Shown: positions 25,733 to 41,634 of the stretch, piece after piece
How positions within the stretch are numbered: position 1 is the first letter of the stretch
How the letters are laid out: each line of letters begins with the position of its first letter
From: an uncultured Trueperaceae bacterium
GTDB lineage: Bacteria > Deinococcota > Deinococci > Deinococcales > Trueperaceae
Assembly: GCA_963815215.1 (NCBI GenBank)
Contig: CAWFFU010000003.1
Span: forward strand, 800,001-864,000
Direction: 5' to 3'
DNA length: 64,000 nucleotides
Position numbers and translations under genes: made by a program
Notes under the pieces: generated by a model
The model's input: only the letters and a program-made list of their open reading frames with translations
Told to the model about the DNA's origin: nothing
The model's database searches: none

Positions 25733-26950
25733 TTACTTCGTCACGGCCGTCACGACACCCGCACCGACCGTCCGACCCCCCTCACGAATCGCAAACCGCA
25801 ACCCCTCCTCCATCGCAATCGGCTTGATCAACTCCACCCCAAGCTCCACATTATCCCCAGGCATCACCATCTCCACACCCTCCGGCAACGACACCACCCC
25901 CGTCACATCCGTCGTCCGAAAGTAAAACTGCGGGCGATACCCAGAAAAAAACGCGCTATGCCGCCCCCCCTCCTCCTTCTTCAACACATACACCGACCCA
26001 CGAAACACCGTATGCGGCGTAATCGACCCAGGCTTCGCCAACACCTGACCCCGCTCGATCTCCTCACGCCCCACACCCCGCAACAAAACCCCCACATTAT
26101 CCCCAGCCATCCCCGAACCCAACGTCTTCCGATGCATCTCCACACCCGTCACAACCGTCTTCCGCGTATCCCCCAACCCAACAATCTCAACCTCATCCCC
26201 CGTCTTCACCTCACCACGCTCAATACGACCCGTCGCCACCGTCCCACGACCCGTAATCGTAAACACATCCTCCACCGGCAACAAAAACGGCTTCTCCACA
26301 TCCCTCACCGGCGTCGGAATATACCCATCCACCGCATCCAACAACTCCCAAATCCGATCCACCCACTCATTCTCACCACGCTGCATCGACGGATTCCCAT
26401 GCAACGCCTCCAACGCCCTCAACGCAGACCCCGCCACCACCGGAATCTCATCCCCCGGAAACTCATACAACGACAACAGCTCCCGAACCTCCATCTCCAC
26501 AAGCTCCAACAACTCCGCATCATCCACCATGTCCACCTTGTTCAAAAACACCACAATATTCGGCACACCCACCTGACGCGCCAACACAATATGCTCACGC
26601 GTCTGCGGCATCGGCCCATCCGCAGCCGACACCACCAACACCGCACCATCCATCTGCGCAGCCCCCGTAATCATATTCTTCACATAATCCGCATGCCCCG
26701 GACAATCCACATGCGAATAATGCCGCGCCACCGTCTGATACTCCACATGCGCCGTATTAATCGTAATCCCACGCGCCTTCTCCTCCGGCGCCTTATCAAT
26801 CTGATCGTAATCCTGAATCTCCACCGACGGATCCGCCGCCGCAGCCGCAAACGTAATCGCAGCCGTCAACGTCGTCTTCCCATGATCCACATGCCCAATC
26901 GTCCCAACATTCACATGCGGCTTCGTACGCTCAAACACACCCTTAGCCAT
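25733..26950 (-). CDS. tuf: Elongation factor Tu
   Basis: [18 protein letters not shown]; 405 aa; anomalous G/T-ending codons. Confidence 0.99.
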
Positions 26951-27028
26951 GATCCTGTCCTTTCCCAGCCGAAACGAGCCGGCCTGCTGGCCGCAGGCAC
27001 GACTCGGCTCGACCTCGGGGCTGCAATT

Positions 27029-27103
<75 letters not shown>

Positions 27104-27175
27104 CCGCCTTCTACCCCGTCTTGCGCCCGGCCCAGCACGCACCGTGCTTGACGCGCCTGCGCGCGGGACCGTGCT

Positions 27176-27251
<76 letters not shown>

Positions 27252-27309
27252 GAACCGCCCGGATCCGGGCGCGCCCTCTCGAGCGGCGTGGCCAAGACGG
27301 CCGCGCTCC

Positions 27310-27395
27310 TGGTGGGCAGGGCTGGATTCGAACCAGCGTAGGCATAAGCCAACGGATTTACAGTCCGTCCCCTTTAACCACTCGGGCACCTACCC
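27310..27395 (-). tRNA. tRNA-Tyr(GTA)
   Basis: Anticodon loop CTGTAAA, long variable arm, encoded CCA. Confidence 0.96.
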
Positions 27396-27422
27396 GCACC
27401 GTGGACGTCGCGCCCCGCGCCG

Positions 27423-27498
27423 TGGAGCCACCCATCGGAATCGAACCGACAACCTTCCGATTACAAGTCGGATGCTCTACCGGTTGAGCTAGGGTGGC
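27423..27498 (-). tRNA. tRNA-Thr(TGT)
   Basis: Anticodon loop CTTGTAA, encoded CCA. Confidence 0.96.
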
Positions 27499-27574
27499 GC
27501 GCCGCAGTTCACACGGCCTCACCGACGCTCGCCGCTCCCGGCGGGGCCGGGCCCGGGCTGACGTCCGAATTCCT

Positions 27575-27604
27575 AAGTTAGCATGCGCGATTTTCCCGTG
27601 TCAA
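27575..27604 (-). promoter_or_regulatory. Promoter of the tRNA-tuf operon
   Basis: TTGACA-18 nt-TAACTT with an extended TGn. Confidence 0.7.
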
Positions 27605-27807
27605 CGGAATGAATCGCCGTTCGTGACGTGGCTAACGGCGCGCTGGCGACAGCGGCGCGAACGGACGCGTCCGGTCGCCCGCGCACGGCCGCCGGAAGGG
27701 CGTCCAGGCGCCGTCCCACCCCCCCGTCCCGGCCGCCCGTACCGTCGCGCCAGAGCACCTTGTAGCGAAGCGGCGGATGCTACGCTACGCGTGATGGAGG
27801 CAATCGC

Positions 27808-28155
27808 ATGAGAATAGGGTCGCTGGGCCTTCCCGAGCTGTTGGTCATCCTGTTGGTCGTTCTGCTGATCTTCGGTCCCCGCAGGCTACCGGAGATGGCG
27901 AAGGGCCTGGGCCAGTCCGTGCGCGAGTTCCGCAAGGGCATCAAGGACATGAAGGAGGACTTCGAGTCCGAGGCGAGCGCGCCGACCCCGGCCAAGGCGC
28001 CCGCCCAAACCGCCGCCGCCGACGCCGCAACCAACGCTGCGTCGCAGCCCGGGGCCACACCGACGGCCACGCCGACGGCTGCACCTGCACCAGCGGCAGC
28101 GGCAGCGGCAGCGGCGCCGTCCGAGGACGGCGACGCCACGCCGAAGGGCGCCTGA
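27808..28155 (+). CDS. tatA: Twin-arginine translocase TatA/E
   Basis: LGLPELLVIL...IFGPRRLPE...GQSVREFRK; Ala/Pro-rich tail. Confidence 0.95.
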   Translation: MRIGSLGLPELLVILLVVLLIFGPRRLPEMAKGLGQSVREFRKGIKDMKEDFESEASAPTPAKAPAQTAAADAATNAASQPGATPTATPTAAPAPAAAAAAAAPSEDGDATPKGA

Positions 28156-36194: not shown

Positions 36195-36466
36195 GCTCGT
36201 GAGCGTACCGCGGCGCGTGGCGACCGGGAGGACGTGCGGGCACGACGCCGGGCCTGTTCGAGTCGGGGCCGGTGGTACACTCCCAGGGACTCGCAGGCGC
36301 CGCTGGCGGGCACCGCCCGGCGCGATCCATGCCGTCGGCGACCACCGCTTCGTGGCCGGCCCGCGGCCCGCGCTCGTTCGTGGCCCGGGGTCCGACACGG
36401 CGCCTTGCCGGGACGATCCTCGGGCCAGCAACAGCCGAGCGTCCGTCCCTATGTTCGGAGGTACGC

Positions 36467-37681
36467 ATGAAGGTCTTCGTTCTCGGTGGTGACGGCTTCT
36501 GCGGCTGGCCCACCAGCCTACACCTCAGCAAACTCGGACACGACATCACCATCATCGACAACCTCAGCCGCCGCAACATCGACAACGAACTCGAAGCCGG
36601 CAGCCTCACCCCCATCCAACCCATGGGCACACGCCTGAAGGCCTGGCAACAGGTCAGCGGCAACACCATCGACTACGAACGCCTCGACATCGCCGACAAC
36701 TACCACCGGCTCCTCACCCTCATCCAAGACCAACGGCCCGACGCCATCATCCACTTCGCCGAACAACGCGCCGCGCCCTACAGCATGAAAAGCAGCTGGC
36801 ACAAGCGCTACACCGTCAACAACAACCTCAACGCCACCCACAACACCCTCGCCGCCATCGTCGAAGCCAACACCGACACCCACCTCATCCACCTCGGCAC
36901 CATGGGCGTCTACGGCTACGGCACCGCCGGCATGAAGATCCCCGAAGGCTACCTCCCCATCGAAGTCACCACCGACGAAGGCGACAAATCCACCAGGAGA
37001 TCCTCTACCCCCCCAACCCCGGCAGCATCTACCACCTCACCAAGACCCAGGACCAACTCTTCTTCGCCTACTACGCCAAGAACGACGGCCTACGCATCAC
37101 CGACCTCCACCAAGGCATCGTCTGGGGCACCAACACCCCCGACACCCTCCAAGACGAACGCCTCATCAACCGCTTCGACTACGACGGCGACTACGGCACC
37201 GTCCTCAACCGCTTCCTCATGCAAGCCGCCGTCAACTACCCCCTCACCGTCCACGGCACCGGCGGACAGACCCGCGCCTTCATCCACATCCGCGACACCG
37301 TCAGATGCCTCCAACTCGCCCTCGAGAACCCCCCCGACAAAGGCGAACGCGTCAAGATCCTCAACCAGATGACCGAAACCCACCGCGTCCGCGACCTCGC
37401 CCAACTCGTCGCCCAACAAACCGGCGCCACCATCGAGAACGTCCCCAACCCCCGCAAAGAAGACGCCGAGAACGACCTCCACGTCCACAACGACCTCTTC
37501 CTCGACCTCGGCCTCCAACCCACCACCCTCCAACAAGGCCTCCTCGAAGAAGTCACCACCATCGCCAAGAAATACGCGCCAGCGCGCCAACCTCGACAAG
37601 ATCCCCTGCACCAGCACCTGGACCCGCAACCAACACGCCGGAACACCCCACAGCACCAAGAAGACGCCAGAAACGGCGTAA
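36467..37681 (+). pseudogene. sqdB: UDP-sulfoquinovose synthase with two apparent frameshifts (about 36988 and 37578); may be assembly errors
   Basis: GGDGFCGWP, HFAEQRAAPYSMKS, HLGTMGVYGY; shifted frame gives PGSIYHLTK, RITDLHQGIVWG, RFDYDGDYGTVLNRF; original frame resumes for LDKIPCTSTW...TAA. Confidence 0.9.
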
Positions 37682-37736
37682 GCCCCGACCACCGGAGGCA
37701 CCCGCCGGACGACCCCCGGCGCCCGCACCCCGCCCC

Positions 37737-38882
37737 ATGCGCATCGCCTTCTTCACGGAAACGTTCCTGCCCAAGATCGACGGGGTGGTCACCCGTCTCG
37801 TGCGCACGCTCGAGCAGCTCGGACAGCTGGGCCACGAGGCGCTGATCTTCGCGCCCCACAACCCTCCCGAGGCGTACGCGGGGCACCGGGTGGTGCGGGT
37901 GCCCGGCGTCCCCTTCAGGCCCTGGTACCCCGAGCTCTTCCTGGGACTGCCCCGACCGCGCCTGGGCCGGGAGCTCGACCGATTCCAGCCCGACATCGTC
38001 CACGTCATCAACCCGGTTGTGCTCGGCCTGTGGGGTACCGCCATCGCCAAGCAGCGCAACCTGCCGCTGCTCGCCAGTTACCACACCGACATCACCCAGT
38101 ACGCCGAGGCGCTGCGACTCCGCTTCCTATCCGAACCGTCGCGCATCTTCCTTCGCGACGTCCACAACCAGGCCCACGTCAACCTGTGCACGAGCGGACC
38201 CATGGTCAACTCGGCGCGCGGCCTGGGCATCCGGCGCGTGCGGCTGTGGCCCAAGGCGGTCGACACCGAGCTGTACCACCCGGGCAAGCGTTCCCACGCC
38301 ATGCGGGTTCGCCTCACCGACGGACACCCGGACGAACCGCTGATGGTCTACGTTGGCAGGCTGTCGTTCGAGAAGCGGCTCGACTGGCTGTACGCGCCGG
38401 TCACCCAACTCCCCAACGTGAGACTGGCTCTGGTCGGCTCGGGGCCGGCCGAGTCGGTCCTGCGCGAGCGTTTCAAGGGCACGCGCACGGTGTTCACCGG
38501 CTACATGTCGGGCACGGAGCTGGCGGCGGCGTACGCGACGGCCGACGTCTTCGCGTTCCCGTCGGACACGGAGACGCTCGGATTCGTCGCGATGGAGGCG
38601 ATGGCGTCCGGGGTGCCACCCGTGGGAGCCCGCGCCGGAGGCATCCCCGACGTGATCCGCGACGGGGATACCGGCCTGATGTTCACGCCCGGCGACCTAG
38701 GGGACCTCACCGAGAAGCTCGCCGTGCTGCTGACCGATCCCGCGCTGCGCGATCGCCTCGGTGCCGCAGCCCGCCGGGACATGGAGCGCTACGGCTGGCG
38801 GTCGGCCACCGAAGGCCTGGTTGACTTCTACCGGCTCGCAGTGCGGGTGCGCGACCGGTTCGACCCGCCCAGCGCCGCCTGA
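37737..38882 (+). CDS. sqdX: GT4 glycosyltransferase, SQDG synthase-like
   Basis: MRIAFFTETFLPKIDGVVTRL, ASYHT, VGRLSFEK, ETLGFVAMEAMASG; adjacent to sqdB. Confidence 0.85.
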   Translation: MRIAFFTETFLPKIDGVVTRLVRTLEQLGQLGHEALIFAPHNPPEAYAGHRVVRVPGVPFRPWYPELFLGLPRPRLGRELDRFQPDIVHVINPVVLGLWGTAIAKQRNLPLLASYHTDITQYAEALRLRFLSEPSRIFLRDVHNQAHVNLCTSGPMVNSARGLGIRRVRLWPKAVDTELYHPGKRSHAMRVRLTDGHPDEPLMVYVGRLSFEKRLDWLYAPVTQLPNVRLALVGSGPAESVLRERFKGTRTVFTGYMSGTELAAAYATADVFAFPSDTETLGFVAMEAMASGVPPVGARAGGIPDVIRDGDTGLMFTPGDLGDLTEKLAVLLTDPALRDRLGAAARRDMERYGWRSATEGLVDFYRLAVRVRDRFDPPSAA

Positions 38883-38912: not shown

Positions 38913-39704
38913 TCACGGGTCGGCCGCGCGCGCACCGTCCGGCAGGTGGGGCACCACCAGCGGGCGTGCCCCGATCGTGTGAACGTCGACACGGGTCCCG
39001 TAGACCCGGGACACGAGCGCCTCGGTGAGGACCTGCGAGGGGGTTCCCTGGGCCACGACGTGCCCCGCCTGCAGCACGACCAGACGGTCGCAGAAGCGGC
39101 TCGCAAGGTTGAGATCGTGGAGCACGACCAGGGCGCCGACGCCACGATCGACCTCCCGGCGCGTGTACTCGAGCATCTCCACCTGGTAGCGCAGATCGAG
39201 ATGGTTGGTCGGCTCGTCCAACAACAGGAAGCGCGGCCGCTGGGCGAGCGCCCGCGCCAGCACCACGCGCTGGCGTTCGCCGCCGGAGAGCCGCGTAGCG
39301 TCGCGGTCCGCCAGCGCGGCGGTGTCGGTGGCGCGCAGGGCCCGGTCGACGGCCCTCCGGTCCTCCGCGCGCTCCGGCCGCAGCAGCCCCAGGTGGGGCG
39401 TGCGCCCCATCGCCACCAGCTCGCGCACGCTGAAGCCGGCCGGGAGCTCCGGAAGTTGTGGGACCACAGCCAAGGATCGCGCCAGCTCCAGCCGCCCGAT
39501 CCGCGCGAGCGACCGGCCGTCGATCGTGACACTACCGGACCGCGGCGCCAACCGGCGTGTGAGCACGCGGACCAGCGTCGACTTGCCCGCTCCGTTCGGC
39601 CCGATGACGCCCAGTACCTCACCGGGCTCCACGCTCAGCTCGCAAGCGGCCAGCACGTCGCCTCTGCCGTACCCGGCGTAGAGCTCGCGGACCTCGATGC
39701 TCAC
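38913..39704 (-). CDS. Cobalamin/Fe-chelate ABC transporter ATPase (BtuD-like)
   Basis: GPNGAGKST, LSGGERQR, LLLDEPTNHLD, VLHDLNLA. Confidence 0.92.
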   Translation of the reverse strand: MSIEVRELYAGYGRGDVLAACELSVEPGEVLGVIGPNGAGKSTLVRVLTRRLAPRSGSVTIDGRSLARIGRLELARSLAVVPQLPELPAGFSVRELVAMGRTPHLGLLRPERAEDRRAVDRALRATDTAALADRDATRLSGGERQRVVLARALAQRPRFLLLDEPTNHLDLRYQVEMLEYTRREVDRGVGALVVLHDLNLASRFCDRLVVLQAGHVVAQGTPSQVLTEALVSRVYGTRVDVHTIGARPLVVPHLPDGARAADP

Positions 39705-39711
39705 GGGAACC

Positions 39712-40749
39712 TCATCGGCTGCGCTGCCTTCGAAGCAGCAGCAGGAAGAAAGGGCCCCCCACCAAGGCCGTGACGATGCCGACGGGAAGCTCGGCGGGGG
39801 CCAGCACCGTACGCGCGAACAGGTCGGCGAGGACCAGGAACACCGCACCCCACAACGCCGACAGGGGTAGCAGGCGCACGTGGCGAGCCCCGAAGGCCAG
39901 TCGCACGGCGTGGGGGACCACCAGGCCCACGAAGCCGATCACGCCGGCCACGGCGACCGCTGCGGCCGTCGCCAGGGTGGCGGCGGTCAGCAGCGCCAGC
40001 CGGACCCGTTCGACCGGCACCCCGAGCTGGGCCGCGGACTCCTCGCCGAGTTGCATCACGTCGAGGGCACGGCCGGCGAGCAGGAGTGGAACGGTGGCCA
40101 CAACGAGCAGAGGCAGAACGCTCAGGACACGGTCCCAACTCGCGAAGGCGAAGCTGCCGAGCAGCCAGCTCAGGATCCCCGCGGCGCGATCCCGCGCGGC
40201 CAGCATCAGGAAGGAGGTGCCGGCGCTGAGGATCGAGCCGAGTACCACGCCCGCCAGGATGAGCGACACGGCGGGGAGCCCGCCGTCCCGGCGAGCCAGT
40301 ACCATCACCAGCACCACCGTCGCCAGGGCGCAGGCGAAGGCCGCGCCCGGCACACCCAGCCGCGTCAGCCAGGGTACGCTGCCCGCCAGCACCAACACGG
40401 CGCTCGCCCCGAACCCCGCCCCGCTGGCGGCCCCCAGCAGGTAGGGATCGGCCAGCGGATTGCGGAACACGCCTTGGAACGTCGCCCCGGCGAGCGCCAG
40501 AGCCGATCCCACCAGGGCGGCGAGCAGCACGCGCGGCAACCGGAGCTGCCACACGATCGTCTCCGTGGGGCCGTGCGCATGGCCCTGAACTCCGGCGACC
40601 ACCGCCGTCACCAGGGCGAGCGGCCGGATGGCGACGCTGCCGACCGACGTCGCCGCCACCAGGACGACGACCAGGGCGATCAGCGAGAGCACGACGGGCG
40701 CCATCCCCCTCCGTCGCGACTCCGCTTGGAACGACAGGACGCGCGCCAC
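39712..40749 (-). CDS. Cobalamin/Fe-chelate ABC permease (BtuC/FecCD family)
   Basis: LRLPR, QGVFRNPLADPYLLG, GVIGFVGLVVPH, ELPVG. Confidence 0.93.
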   Translation of the reverse strand: MARVLSFQAESRRRGMAPVVLSLIALVVVLVAATSVGSVAIRPLALVTAVVAGVQGHAHGPTETIVWQLRLPRVLLAALVGSALALAGATFQGVFRNPLADPYLLGAASGAGFGASAVLVLAGSVPWLTRLGVPGAAFACALATVVLVMVLARRDGGLPAVSLILAGVVLGSILSAGTSFLMLAARDRAAGILSWLLGSFAFASWDRVLSVLPLLVVATVPLLLAGRALDVMQLGEESAAQLGVPVERVRLALLTAATLATAAAVAVAGVIGFVGLVVPHAVRLAFGARHVRLLPLSALWGAVFLVLADLFARTVLAPAELPVGIVTALVGGPFFLLLLRRQRSR

Positions 40750-40752
40750 GGC

Positions 40753-41634
40753 TCAGAAGCGGCCCGGATGGAGGAGCCTGGCCAGCAGCGACACCGCGTC
40801 TCCCATGCGCGGCCCGGCACGACTGAGGAGGTCGACCTGGCGCAGGTCGAGCGCCACCACACGACCGCTCTTCACGGCGCTGAGCCCCGCCCATCCCGGC
40901 CGCGCCTCGGCAGCGGCGAGCGTCTCCCCGTACGGAGCGTCCATCAGCAACACGACCTGGGGGTCCTGCTGCACTACGAACTCAGGATCGACCTGAGGGT
41001 ACTGCCCCATCGACGGCCGCACGATGGTCCGGCCCCCGGCCTTGGCGAGCAGCGTCCCGAGGTACGAGGTCGGCCCCACGCTGTAAGGCGTGCCGTCGAG
41101 CTCGACGAAGACGCTCACGGTAGGGAGCCCGGCGACCTCGGAGGCGACCGCAGCCACCTGTCCCTCGATATGGCTGCGCACCGCGGCGGCCGCGGCCTGG
41201 CGGTCGAGCAGACGGCCCATCGCTTCCAGGAAGTCCAGCGCCTGAGAGTAGGTTTGCGGCGTCCCGGCGTAGACCGGGATTCCCAGCTTCCGAACCCGTT
41301 CCGCGAGCCCGCTGTACTCGTCGGTGAGGACCAGGTCGGGCTTCAACGCGACCAGCCGTTCCAGGTTCGGGTCATTGGCGTTGCCGAGCCGGGGCAGCGA
41401 TGCGACCGTCGCCGGCCAATCGCTGAGGGCGTCGACCCCGACCAGCCGGTCGCACGCGCCCAGCGCACACACCGTCTCGGTGTCGCTGGGGATCATCGAC
41501 ACGATCCGCTTCGGCGGGCCGGTCAACGTCAGCTTCGCGCCGAGCTGATCCCGGATCGTCAGGGGGTAGGCCGTCGCCAGCGCCGTCTGGAGCGCCAGCA
41601 GCAGGACCACGAGGAACGTCGAGCGCTTGACCAC
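40753..41634 (-). CDS. Cobalamin-binding periplasmic protein (BtuF-like)
   Basis: Signal peptide, PKRIVSMIPSDTE, NLERLVALKPDLV, SRAGPR; lies under a cobalamin riboswitch. Confidence 0.9.
   Translation of the reverse strand: MVKRSTFLVVLLLALQTALATAYPLTIRDQLGAKLTLTGPPKRIVSMIPSDTETVCALGACDRLVGVDALSDWPATVASLPRLGNANDPNLERLVALKPDLVLTDEYSGLAERVRKLGIPVYAGTPQTYSQALDFLEAMGRLLDRQAAAAAVRSHIEGQVAAVASEVAGLPTVSVFVELDGTPYSVGPTSYLGTLLAKAGGRTIVRPSMGQYPQVDPEFVVQQDPQVVLLMDAPYGETLAAAEARPGWAGLSAVKSGRVVALDLRQVDLLSRAGPRMGDAVSLLARLLHPGRF

Follow-up and report, generated by a model that had tools for sequence, protein, structure and literature searches.

Whether a gene must be duplicated to acquire the intense strand asymmetry described in genetic repeats that carry intense nucleotide skews (GRINS) is a question raised by sqdB, the predicted gene for UDP-sulfoquinovose synthase, in a 64,000-nucleotide window of an uncultured Trueperaceae bacterium (G000:C3:800001-864000; G### denotes the genomes compared and C# their contigs). 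The source assembly, G000, is a metagenome bin of 3.32 Mb in 14 contigs with 70% GC and 97% completeness. GRINS are defined as segments >500 bp long with mean absolute GC and TA skews >0.15 that are correlated, and with >80% DNA identity elsewhere; duplication is part of the definition, and they are linked to gene conversion (PMC8256042). A preliminary description of the window had proposed that a GRINS-type process acts on duplicated ordinary genes of this genome and that sqdB is one of these duplicates, with a hidden second copy. Our analysis locates such a state on two duplicated genes, tuf and recA, and finds sqdB at its own locus alone. It suggests that sqdB probably carries a single-copy form of the state that marks the tuf and recA conversion pairs, one due to a directional fixation bias with a polarity set by replication.

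Between 36501 and 37650 the plus strand has a GC skew of -0.41 and an AT skew of +0.42. Individual 300-nt windows from 36450 to 37799 range from -0.29 to -0.45 in GC skew and from +0.27 to +0.50 in AT skew at 61-66% GC, and the flanks have skews near zero and 70-76% GC. Across the genome, 33,119 windows of 400 nt have a mean GC skew of -0.005 (SD 0.079) and an AT skew SD of 0.143, and merging adjoining windows with |AT skew - GC skew| >0.6 yields only 40 islands. The sqdB island is ~1,240 bp long, above the >500 bp limit for GRINS. It begins ~35 nt into the gene, behind 34 nt that are rich in G and T, continues evenly through every 20-codon block, and takes in the 55-nt spacer behind sqdB, which is as skewed as the gene itself. 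It ends where sqdX starts, at 37737. sqdX is unskewed overall, with a weak skew only at codons 100-200. The base counts made by hand in the preliminary description were exact (C31/G8/A15/T6 for 36841-36900 in sqdB and G23/C21 for 38521-38580 in sqdX).

The asymmetry is strongest at silent sites. Four-fold sites of sqdB are C 0.91, G 0.04, A 0.04 and T 0.02, two-fold pyrimidine sites are 100% C, and 64% of Gln, Lys and Glu codons end in A, resulting in third-position skews of -0.77 (GC) and +0.88 (AT). Ordinary genes of the genome have C at ~0.44-0.50, G at 0.38-0.43 and 11-15% A-ending purine codons. What sets sqdB apart is that its sense strand shuns G at almost all silent sites: C stands in for it at sites open to any base, and A at sites restricted to purines; T is rare throughout this 70% GC genome. 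Of the reported loss of G and T at synonymous sites, the G part therefore stands and the T part is ordinary for such a genome. Among the codons named in its support, CTC (39 against 1 CTG), ACC (37 against 2 ACG), CCC (19 against 0 CCG), CAA (17 against 6 CAG) and GAA (15 against 4 GAG) are indeed preferred, and AAA is not (6 against 11 AAG). Positions 1 and 2 and the amino acid composition are shifted in the same direction as the third positions: P+T+H+Q make up 0.24-0.26 of the protein in the skewed sqdB clade versus 0.19-0.20 in other genera, and G+V+C+W 0.136-0.139 versus 0.166-0.186. Enrichment of Pro, Thr, His and Gln and depletion of Gly, Val, Cys and Trp have been described for GRINS in negatively skewed DNA (PMC8256042), and both this drift and correlated skews >0.15 are found in sqdB. 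The predicted folding energy of the skewed sense RNA, -0.18 kcal/mol per nt, is about half that of unskewed orthologues (-0.34 to -0.38) and neighbouring genes (-0.40 to -0.46).

The identity of the gene is predicted from profile and structure matches. Its reading frame is broken twice in the assembly; Pfam Epimerase matches both main pieces, and each matches its own half of the NCBIfam profile NF041015 (UDP-sulfoquinovose synthase), which is the top match of the intact G003 orthologue at 340.6 bits against a cut-off of 575. The Arabidopsis SQD1 structures 1qrr/1i24 match with E 3e-93 over residues 2-386. The succession sqdB-sqdX is an operon pattern, and the glycosyltransferase of the GT4 type that follows sqdB here fits it.

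A search of 36400-37800 against all 14 contigs (megablast, blastn and dc-megablast) returned the self match and a weak 66-nt match at the sqdX end only. No duplicate of >80% identity was thus found in G000, where the only other protein match is 34% identical. In a protein search of 41 genomes, 26 had an sqdB match, with a full-length orthologue at 20 loci (E <= 1e-102), and none of the 41 had two full-length orthologues; G010 and G002 gave partial matches, and all remaining matches were epimerase relatives with 29-46% identity. Metagenome contigs from related strains (X runs, 90-99% alike) were used for comparison in place of the assembly's own reads. An X7 contig of 2,684 nt spans 36539-38600 unbroken, through sqdB, the spacer and sqdX. 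In X1 the contig word depth is alike in sqdB (6.8 and 6.09) and sqdX (7.02), a weak indication as word depth in these runs is no copy number; the same applies to the X3 contig depth of 50-160 over sqdB versus 8-60 on the flanks, which is a sum over many related strains. A collapsed 1.2-kb repeat is unlikely because the assembly resolved the tuf pair, which is 100% identical.

sqdB is followed by sqdX in all 19 relatives' loci, and its protein identity drops with taxonomic distance, from 96% in near species to 76-79% in other genera. From these sequence comparisons, sqdB is probably an ordinary, vertically inherited, single-copy UDP-sulfoquinovose synthase gene. The comparison of third positions with single-copy orthologues, which the preliminary description had recommended, revealed a graded series: skew is absent in G019 (four-fold C/G 0.45/0.50, 2% A-ending Gln, Lys and Glu codons), intermediate in G001 (0.76/0.20, 3%) and extreme in the crown species G000, G003, G004, G005 and G007 (0.91-0.95/0.02-0.04, 58-67%). 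A tree of sqdX places G019 first, then (G001, G009), then the crown (G000, G007, (G003, G004)), with support of 100/95. The skew thus rose in place within this clade, from none in G019 through C-over-G only in G001 to the full state in the crown, and, because it is common to orthologues across species, it is at least as old as the species split. Outside the clade, G015 has a skewed sqdB (C/G 0.83/0.10, 37% A-ending) beside a normal one in G022, which, on the single-gene sqdX tree, suggests a second, separate origin. In a survey of 80 sqdB loci spread over many phyla, just three have a GC skew <= -0.24, the rest lying between -0.19 and +0.10; two of the three (L070 and L071) are titled Trueperaceae and the third (L072) 'uncultured bacterium'.

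Silent sites in sqdB have also diverged slowly. The ratio of corrected four-fold distances in sqdB to those in sqdX, the one control gene, is 0.28 for G003-G004 (95% range 0.09-0.60), 0.21 for G000-G003 (0.10-0.40) and 0.13 for G000-G004 (0.05-0.26), using a simple F81-type correction and bootstrap ranges. Silent-site divergence is thus 4-8 times below that of the neighbouring gene; at positions 1+2 the divergence of sqdB is equal to that of sqdX or higher (sqdB versus sqdX 0.017/0.014, 0.037/0.030 and 0.035/0.034 for the same three pairs). The upstream gene was unfit as a second control, its alignments to G003 and G004 being gapped. By our two-state estimate, a model with faster loss of G only gives ~1.9 times the normal silent turnover, and a fixation bias for C over G of ~23:1 predicts a turnover ratio of ~0.27; the observed ratios fit the fixation bias. 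Slow silent sites together with equal divergence at positions 1+2 argue for a directional fixation bias and not for a local mutation hot spot.

The sign of the skew follows the chromosome strand and not the coding strand, as the preliminary description had concluded from tuf, a minus-strand gene that has the same direction of skew on the plus strand (C533/G171/A309/T205). We set the leading strand by the sign of the background GC skew and took gene orientations from open reading frames (ORFs) with Pfam matches. In G000 this background is positive on C3 to ~320 kb, C10, C4, C12 and C14, and negative on C3 beyond 480 kb, C11 and C8. A stricter set of islands (>=500 nt, |GC skew| >0.25, TA skew >0.15 of like sign) contains 20, of which 18 have a clear background and 16 of these share its sign (Fisher p 0.003); when the islands are collapsed to 12 loci, 10 agree wholly (p 0.04). 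The agreeing genes include co-directional ones with a G/T-rich sense strand (tuf, recA on C8, C11:187606 and C3:1178099) and head-on ones with a C/A-rich sense strand (sqdB, C11:194739, the pse/NeuB cluster on C12, C3:631387 and C4:136461), so that the presumed leading strand is G/T-rich in both alike. Among the G000 exceptions is recA on C3, which is inverted relative to its agreeing twin on C8. In G020, of which 2.4 of 2.92 Mb were covered, 10 of 11 islands on the positive replichore are positive, the exception again being an inverted recA twin, and the negative replichore has one clear island, which is negative, and two ambiguous ones. The background GC skew amounts to 2-5%, and head-on and co-directional genes differ by 0.10 in mean third-position skew; against 885 head-on genes (-0.161 +/- 0.096), sqdB is an outlier. 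A codon-score gene caller (2,132 ORFs, 80% of the genome covered) missed both sqdB and tuf, and gene-level lists consequently under-report skewed genes.

The GRINS-type state proposed for duplicated ordinary genes of this genome is indeed present, on tuf and recA. The two tuf copies, both on the minus strand, have 100% DNA identity over ~1.1-1.2 kb. The recA copies (G000:C3:872289-873386, plus strand, and C8:78260-79450, minus strand) have a ~0.9 kb identical core (99.8%) and unrelated ends. In both pairs the identical tracts coincide, at 100-nt resolution, with a sense-strand GC skew of +0.4 to +0.65, and outside them there is neither identity nor skew; both pairs fall within the published GRINS definition (PMC8256042). 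Four-fold sites of tuf are G 0.78, T 0.20, C 0.02 and A 0.00, two-fold pyrimidine sites are 6% C, and the third-position GC skew is ~+0.85, making tuf the mirror image of sqdB on the sense strand. Because tuf lies on the minus strand and sqdB on the plus strand, it is the minus strand of the window that is C-poor in both genes. Full-length tuf matches score identically in nine genomes across the order (both in G000, G019, G030, G020, G012, G017 and G026, three in G031, and a near-identical pair in G033), and in many of the searched genomes tuf is poor in C. An inverted recA pair is also found in another genus (G020:C1:589509-590576 and 835411-836460); the inversion leaves one copy with a skew opposite to that of its own replichore.

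Skew is not confined to these genes. In a dihydrolipoamide-dehydrogenase-like Pyr_redox_2 gene (C3:1174413-1175795, plus strand), G makes up 0.09-0.23 of four-fold sites in six genus genomes and a normal 0.41-0.43 at three loci in G012 and G030; this is a second single-copy gene with lineage-wide skew. Of all called genes, G is scarcest (four-fold G 0.14, A 0.21) in a 381-aa ORF at C11:194739-195881 (plus strand), which matched no Pfam family and had no homologue among 24 relatives; 6 kb away is an oppositely oriented DUF4357 gene with the same chromosomal skew polarity. A pseudaminic/sialic-acid-type cluster at C12:4946-8891 (minus strand; NeuB, GNAT, Glyco_tran_28_C and a cytidylyltransferase) has a C/A-rich sense strand over ~3.7 kb. 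The frames of this cluster seem broken, with GNAT divided between two overlapping ORFs, and consensus errors in the skewed sequence may again be the cause. Paralogous NHL/beta-propeller surface proteins (C3:631387, C4:141156, C10:82205, C3:1210199 and C10:27276) are moderately C-over-G and may be a family under partial conversion. The moderately skewed genes as a whole (NHL/beta-propeller proteins, a cupredoxin, the Pyr_redox_2 enzyme, an ABC ATPase and regulators) have no clear link to expression. Most of the other G020 islands (C1:3-7998 and 422486-429357) fall within minus-strand genes that, judging by their translations, seem to resemble defence or mobile-element genes (helicase-like, ArdC-like and restriction-enzyme-like).

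Table 1. Features of the window around sqdB (positions are those of the window).
Feature	Position	Strand	Basis or remark
sqdB (UDP-sulfoquinovose synthase, SQD1 family)	36467..37681	+	three-frame translation; Pfam, NCBIfam and PDB matches
sqdB reading in the assembly	36467-36988, 36991-37578, 37580-37681; stop 37679-37681	+	three frames
Skew island	36501..37736	+	C/A-rich; gene body from ~codon 12 plus sqdB-sqdX spacer
First frame break	36983..36999	+	one base missing behind 36988; DNA alignment with G003-G007
Second frame break	37572..37582	+	one base too many, first frame restored; DNA alignment
sqdB-sqdX non-coding spacer	37682..37736	+	55 nt, G15 C33 A7 T0
sqdX-like GT4 glycosyltransferase	37737..38882	+	Pfam Glycos_transf_1 and Glyco_transf_4; neighbouring control gene
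tuf copy	25733..26950	-	GRINS-type pair member; twin G000:C3:568993-570207

Because of the two frame breaks (Table 1), the middle 196 codons of sqdB lie in another frame. Both breaks fall where differences from the closest orthologues cluster in small patches, the first patch having four further differences. At the first break, three of three DNA runs (one covering contig each) have an extra G behind 36988 and no frame break, and an RNA run contig has an A behind 36982 instead; at the second, both covering DNA runs have one base fewer, at 37576 (X3) or 37578 (X7), X1 being without cover. Since contigs of three other metagenomes lack the breaks, the frameshifts are most likely errors of the metagenome-assembly consensus or private to the strain, as judged from these alignments. 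The contigs of the RNA run X19 (90-99% alike) fall on 36456-37401 only; they possibly come from relatives and carry no information on strand or level, and their gaps on the flanks are uninformative. A second assembly with a broken sqdB is G005 (L004, G005:C95), which has a 25-nt gap at codons ~46-54 relative to all other orthologues, with the frame shifted. Elsewhere in the window, 39600-40950 has a plus-strand AT skew of +0.3 to +0.49 and hardly any GC skew, which is an asymmetry of another kind.

We propose that the body of sqdB has been recoded in place into an extreme keto/amino skew without a partner copy, and that the state is held by a directional fixation bias under which C is preferred to G roughly 20-fold at free sites. 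Such a bias could come from biased repair or conversion that is strand-asymmetric and takes place when genome copies recombine, fork direction providing the polarity. It could also come from selection for a strand unable to pair with itself, with the replication bias picking the base of the G:C pair that is lost. In either case, the mechanism that we infer is a fixation bias local to the gene and polarised by strand.

Two of the alternatives concern where the gene came from. That sqdB is half of a duplicated pair, true GRINS that gene conversion keeps alike and whose partner is hidden or collapsed, is suggested by the GRINS-like type of skew, by the two skewed conversion pairs in the same genome, and by the assembly being a 14-contig metagenome bin that is 97% complete. 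It is nonetheless very unlikely, as there is no second copy in 3.32 Mb in which identical 1.1-kb tuf copies were resolved, no genome of the 41 has two full-length orthologues, the X7 contig bridges the locus, and the skew is common to orthologues across species with a partner in none. The self-BLAST, the 41-genome search and the bridging contig led us to reject a hidden copy. sqdB being single-copy, with relatives that have no paralogue, the duplicate hypothesis fails by the rule that the preliminary description had set for it. Horizontal transfer from a donor with C- and A-ending codons, the alternative raised there, would explain an island of 62% GC in a 70% GC genome, and the other G-poor gene, C11:194739-195881, may have been acquired, given its lack of homologues in the 24 relatives. 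It is, however, highly improbable for sqdB: identity tracks taxonomy, synteny with sqdX is kept, positions 1+2 match the neighbouring gene, the skew is stepwise within the clade, and 77 of the 80 loci surveyed have no such usage. A like-coded donor lineage was rejected on the synteny, the 80-locus survey, the rate test and the sqdX tree.

The remaining alternatives concern the force that acts on the gene. If sqdB were a local hot spot of mutation, deamination would strike cytosines on the minus strand, the template and presumed leading strand, far more often within this gene, possibly because head-on fork stalling exposes the strand in single-stranded form, and GC pressure would turn the resulting T into G. 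This would account for a polarity equal to that of replication skew and for the skew of the non-coding spacer, and a single tendency to avoid C fits both tuf (four-fold T 20%, two-fold pyrimidine T 94%) and sqdB (A 60% at purine sites); deamination of single-stranded DNA is also named as a candidate by the GRINS authors (PMC8256042). A hot spot is still unlikely, for it predicts a silent turnover at least that of ordinary genes, against observed ratios of 0.13-0.28, and in G001 four-fold G is already down to 0.20 with A-ending purine codons still at 3%, the reverse of a G-to-A-led order. Selection acting solely on the nucleic acid and unconnected with recombination deserves somewhat more weight but is improbable too. 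It could favour a C/A-rich mRNA that is free of structure, or it could act against R-loops where a gene is transcribed head-on, a G-poor transcript forming weaker RNA:DNA hybrids, and it is consistent with slow silent sites, a skew confined to gene and spacer, the halved predicted folding of the sense RNA, and parallel skew of the same gene in two lineages. It overlaps with the fixation bias that we favour and is inseparable from it here; yet sqdX, 55 nt downstream on the same strand and possibly on the same transcript, is barely skewed, and R-loop avoidance fails for the mirror-image G-rich sense strands of tuf and recA. Gene-specific codon preference tied to the tRNA pool would explain why the effect is strongest at third positions and why silent sites are constrained, but is very improbable: tuf, the standard highly expressed gene, prefers the opposite G/T-ending codons, a 1-kb window beside it (27001-28000) is unskewed, the non-coding spacer is skewed, and the amino acid composition shifts alike. 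The mirror image in tuf and the skewed spacer led us to discard codon or tRNA selection.

Several points weigh against the directional fixation bias with replication polarity that we favour. The leading strand was assigned from the background skew and the origin is not mapped, a small shift in mean alone would enrich the matching sign among extreme windows, the islands are not independent (duplicates and neighbouring genes reduce them to 12 loci), and the negative replichore of G020 gave few islands. A head-on sqdB beside tuf also occurs in the unskewed G019, G020 and G017, and orientation alone is no explanation because these relatives have the same arrangement. The copy number of sqdB rests on contigs of related strains, the frameshifts, if real, would make sqdB of this strain a recent pseudogene, and the rate argument comprises 7-15 silent differences per pair with one control gene and a simple correction. 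No result separates natural selection from biased conversion.

Several known processes resemble this state in part. Duplicated tuf genes undergo concerted evolution by gene conversion, which the G000 tuf pair resembles in its fully identical DNA; this process is irrelevant to the single-copy sqdB, and near-total avoidance of C at silent sites is not known to have been described in the tuf conversion literature. GC-biased gene conversion and silent-site selection are fixation biases that slow disfavoured changes, as at the four-fold sites of sqdB, but the classical form favours G and C alike, whereas sqdB favours one of the two on one strand. A strand-asymmetric form would be needed, and we know of none. 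Replication-associated skew makes the bacterial leading strand G/T-rich (PMC8256042), and the islands share this polarity with their background, in which the presumed leading strand is G/T-rich. They differ from it in a far larger magnitude (third-position GC skew -0.77 in sqdB and ~+0.85 in tuf) and in being confined to single genes. GRINS come closest, with correlated GC and TA skews over ~1 kb that are strongest at third positions in a functional-looking protein. sqdB has no repeat, however, and is not GRINS by definition; it is also a housekeeping lipid gene in Deinococcota, outside the five phyla named in the genome-selection passage of the GRINS paper (PMC8256042). Its skew has one sign over the whole gene and follows the replichore, whereas GRINS elements have both signs on one strand, for which reason replication strand bias was argued not to explain them (PMC8256042). 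Skewed regions 'present in only one copy' are mentioned in the Discussion of that paper (PMC8256042). In the literature that we consulted on GRINS, nucleotide skew and Deinococcota, which did not extend to the GRINS supplementary tables that may list tuf or recA, we found no description of replichore-following single-copy islands or of skewed tuf or recA.

The sqdB island indicates that a gene need not be duplicated for GRINS-like skew to appear in it and to last. On the question of what causes GRINS skews, sqdB provides a single-copy, vertically inherited housekeeping case with two measurable properties, namely a polarity that follows the replichore and silent sites that are 4-8 times slower than next door. 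Skewed genes of this type have open alternative frames and unusual codon usage, and others like them may be mistaken for foreign genes or pseudogenes. With graded intermediates, a probable second origin and true pairs in the same genome, a comparison is available in which it is testable whether skew preceded duplication or followed it, and whether the force is one of mutation or a fixation bias. It is possible, and we put it forward only tentatively, that GRINS-type skew does not result from duplication, that a replication-polarised, selection-like force builds it first in single-copy genes, and that repeats like tuf and recA turn into hot spots of conversion on account of their skew. If so, the Trueperaceae sqdB series would be a natural time series of the birth of an island, with a second origin in G015.

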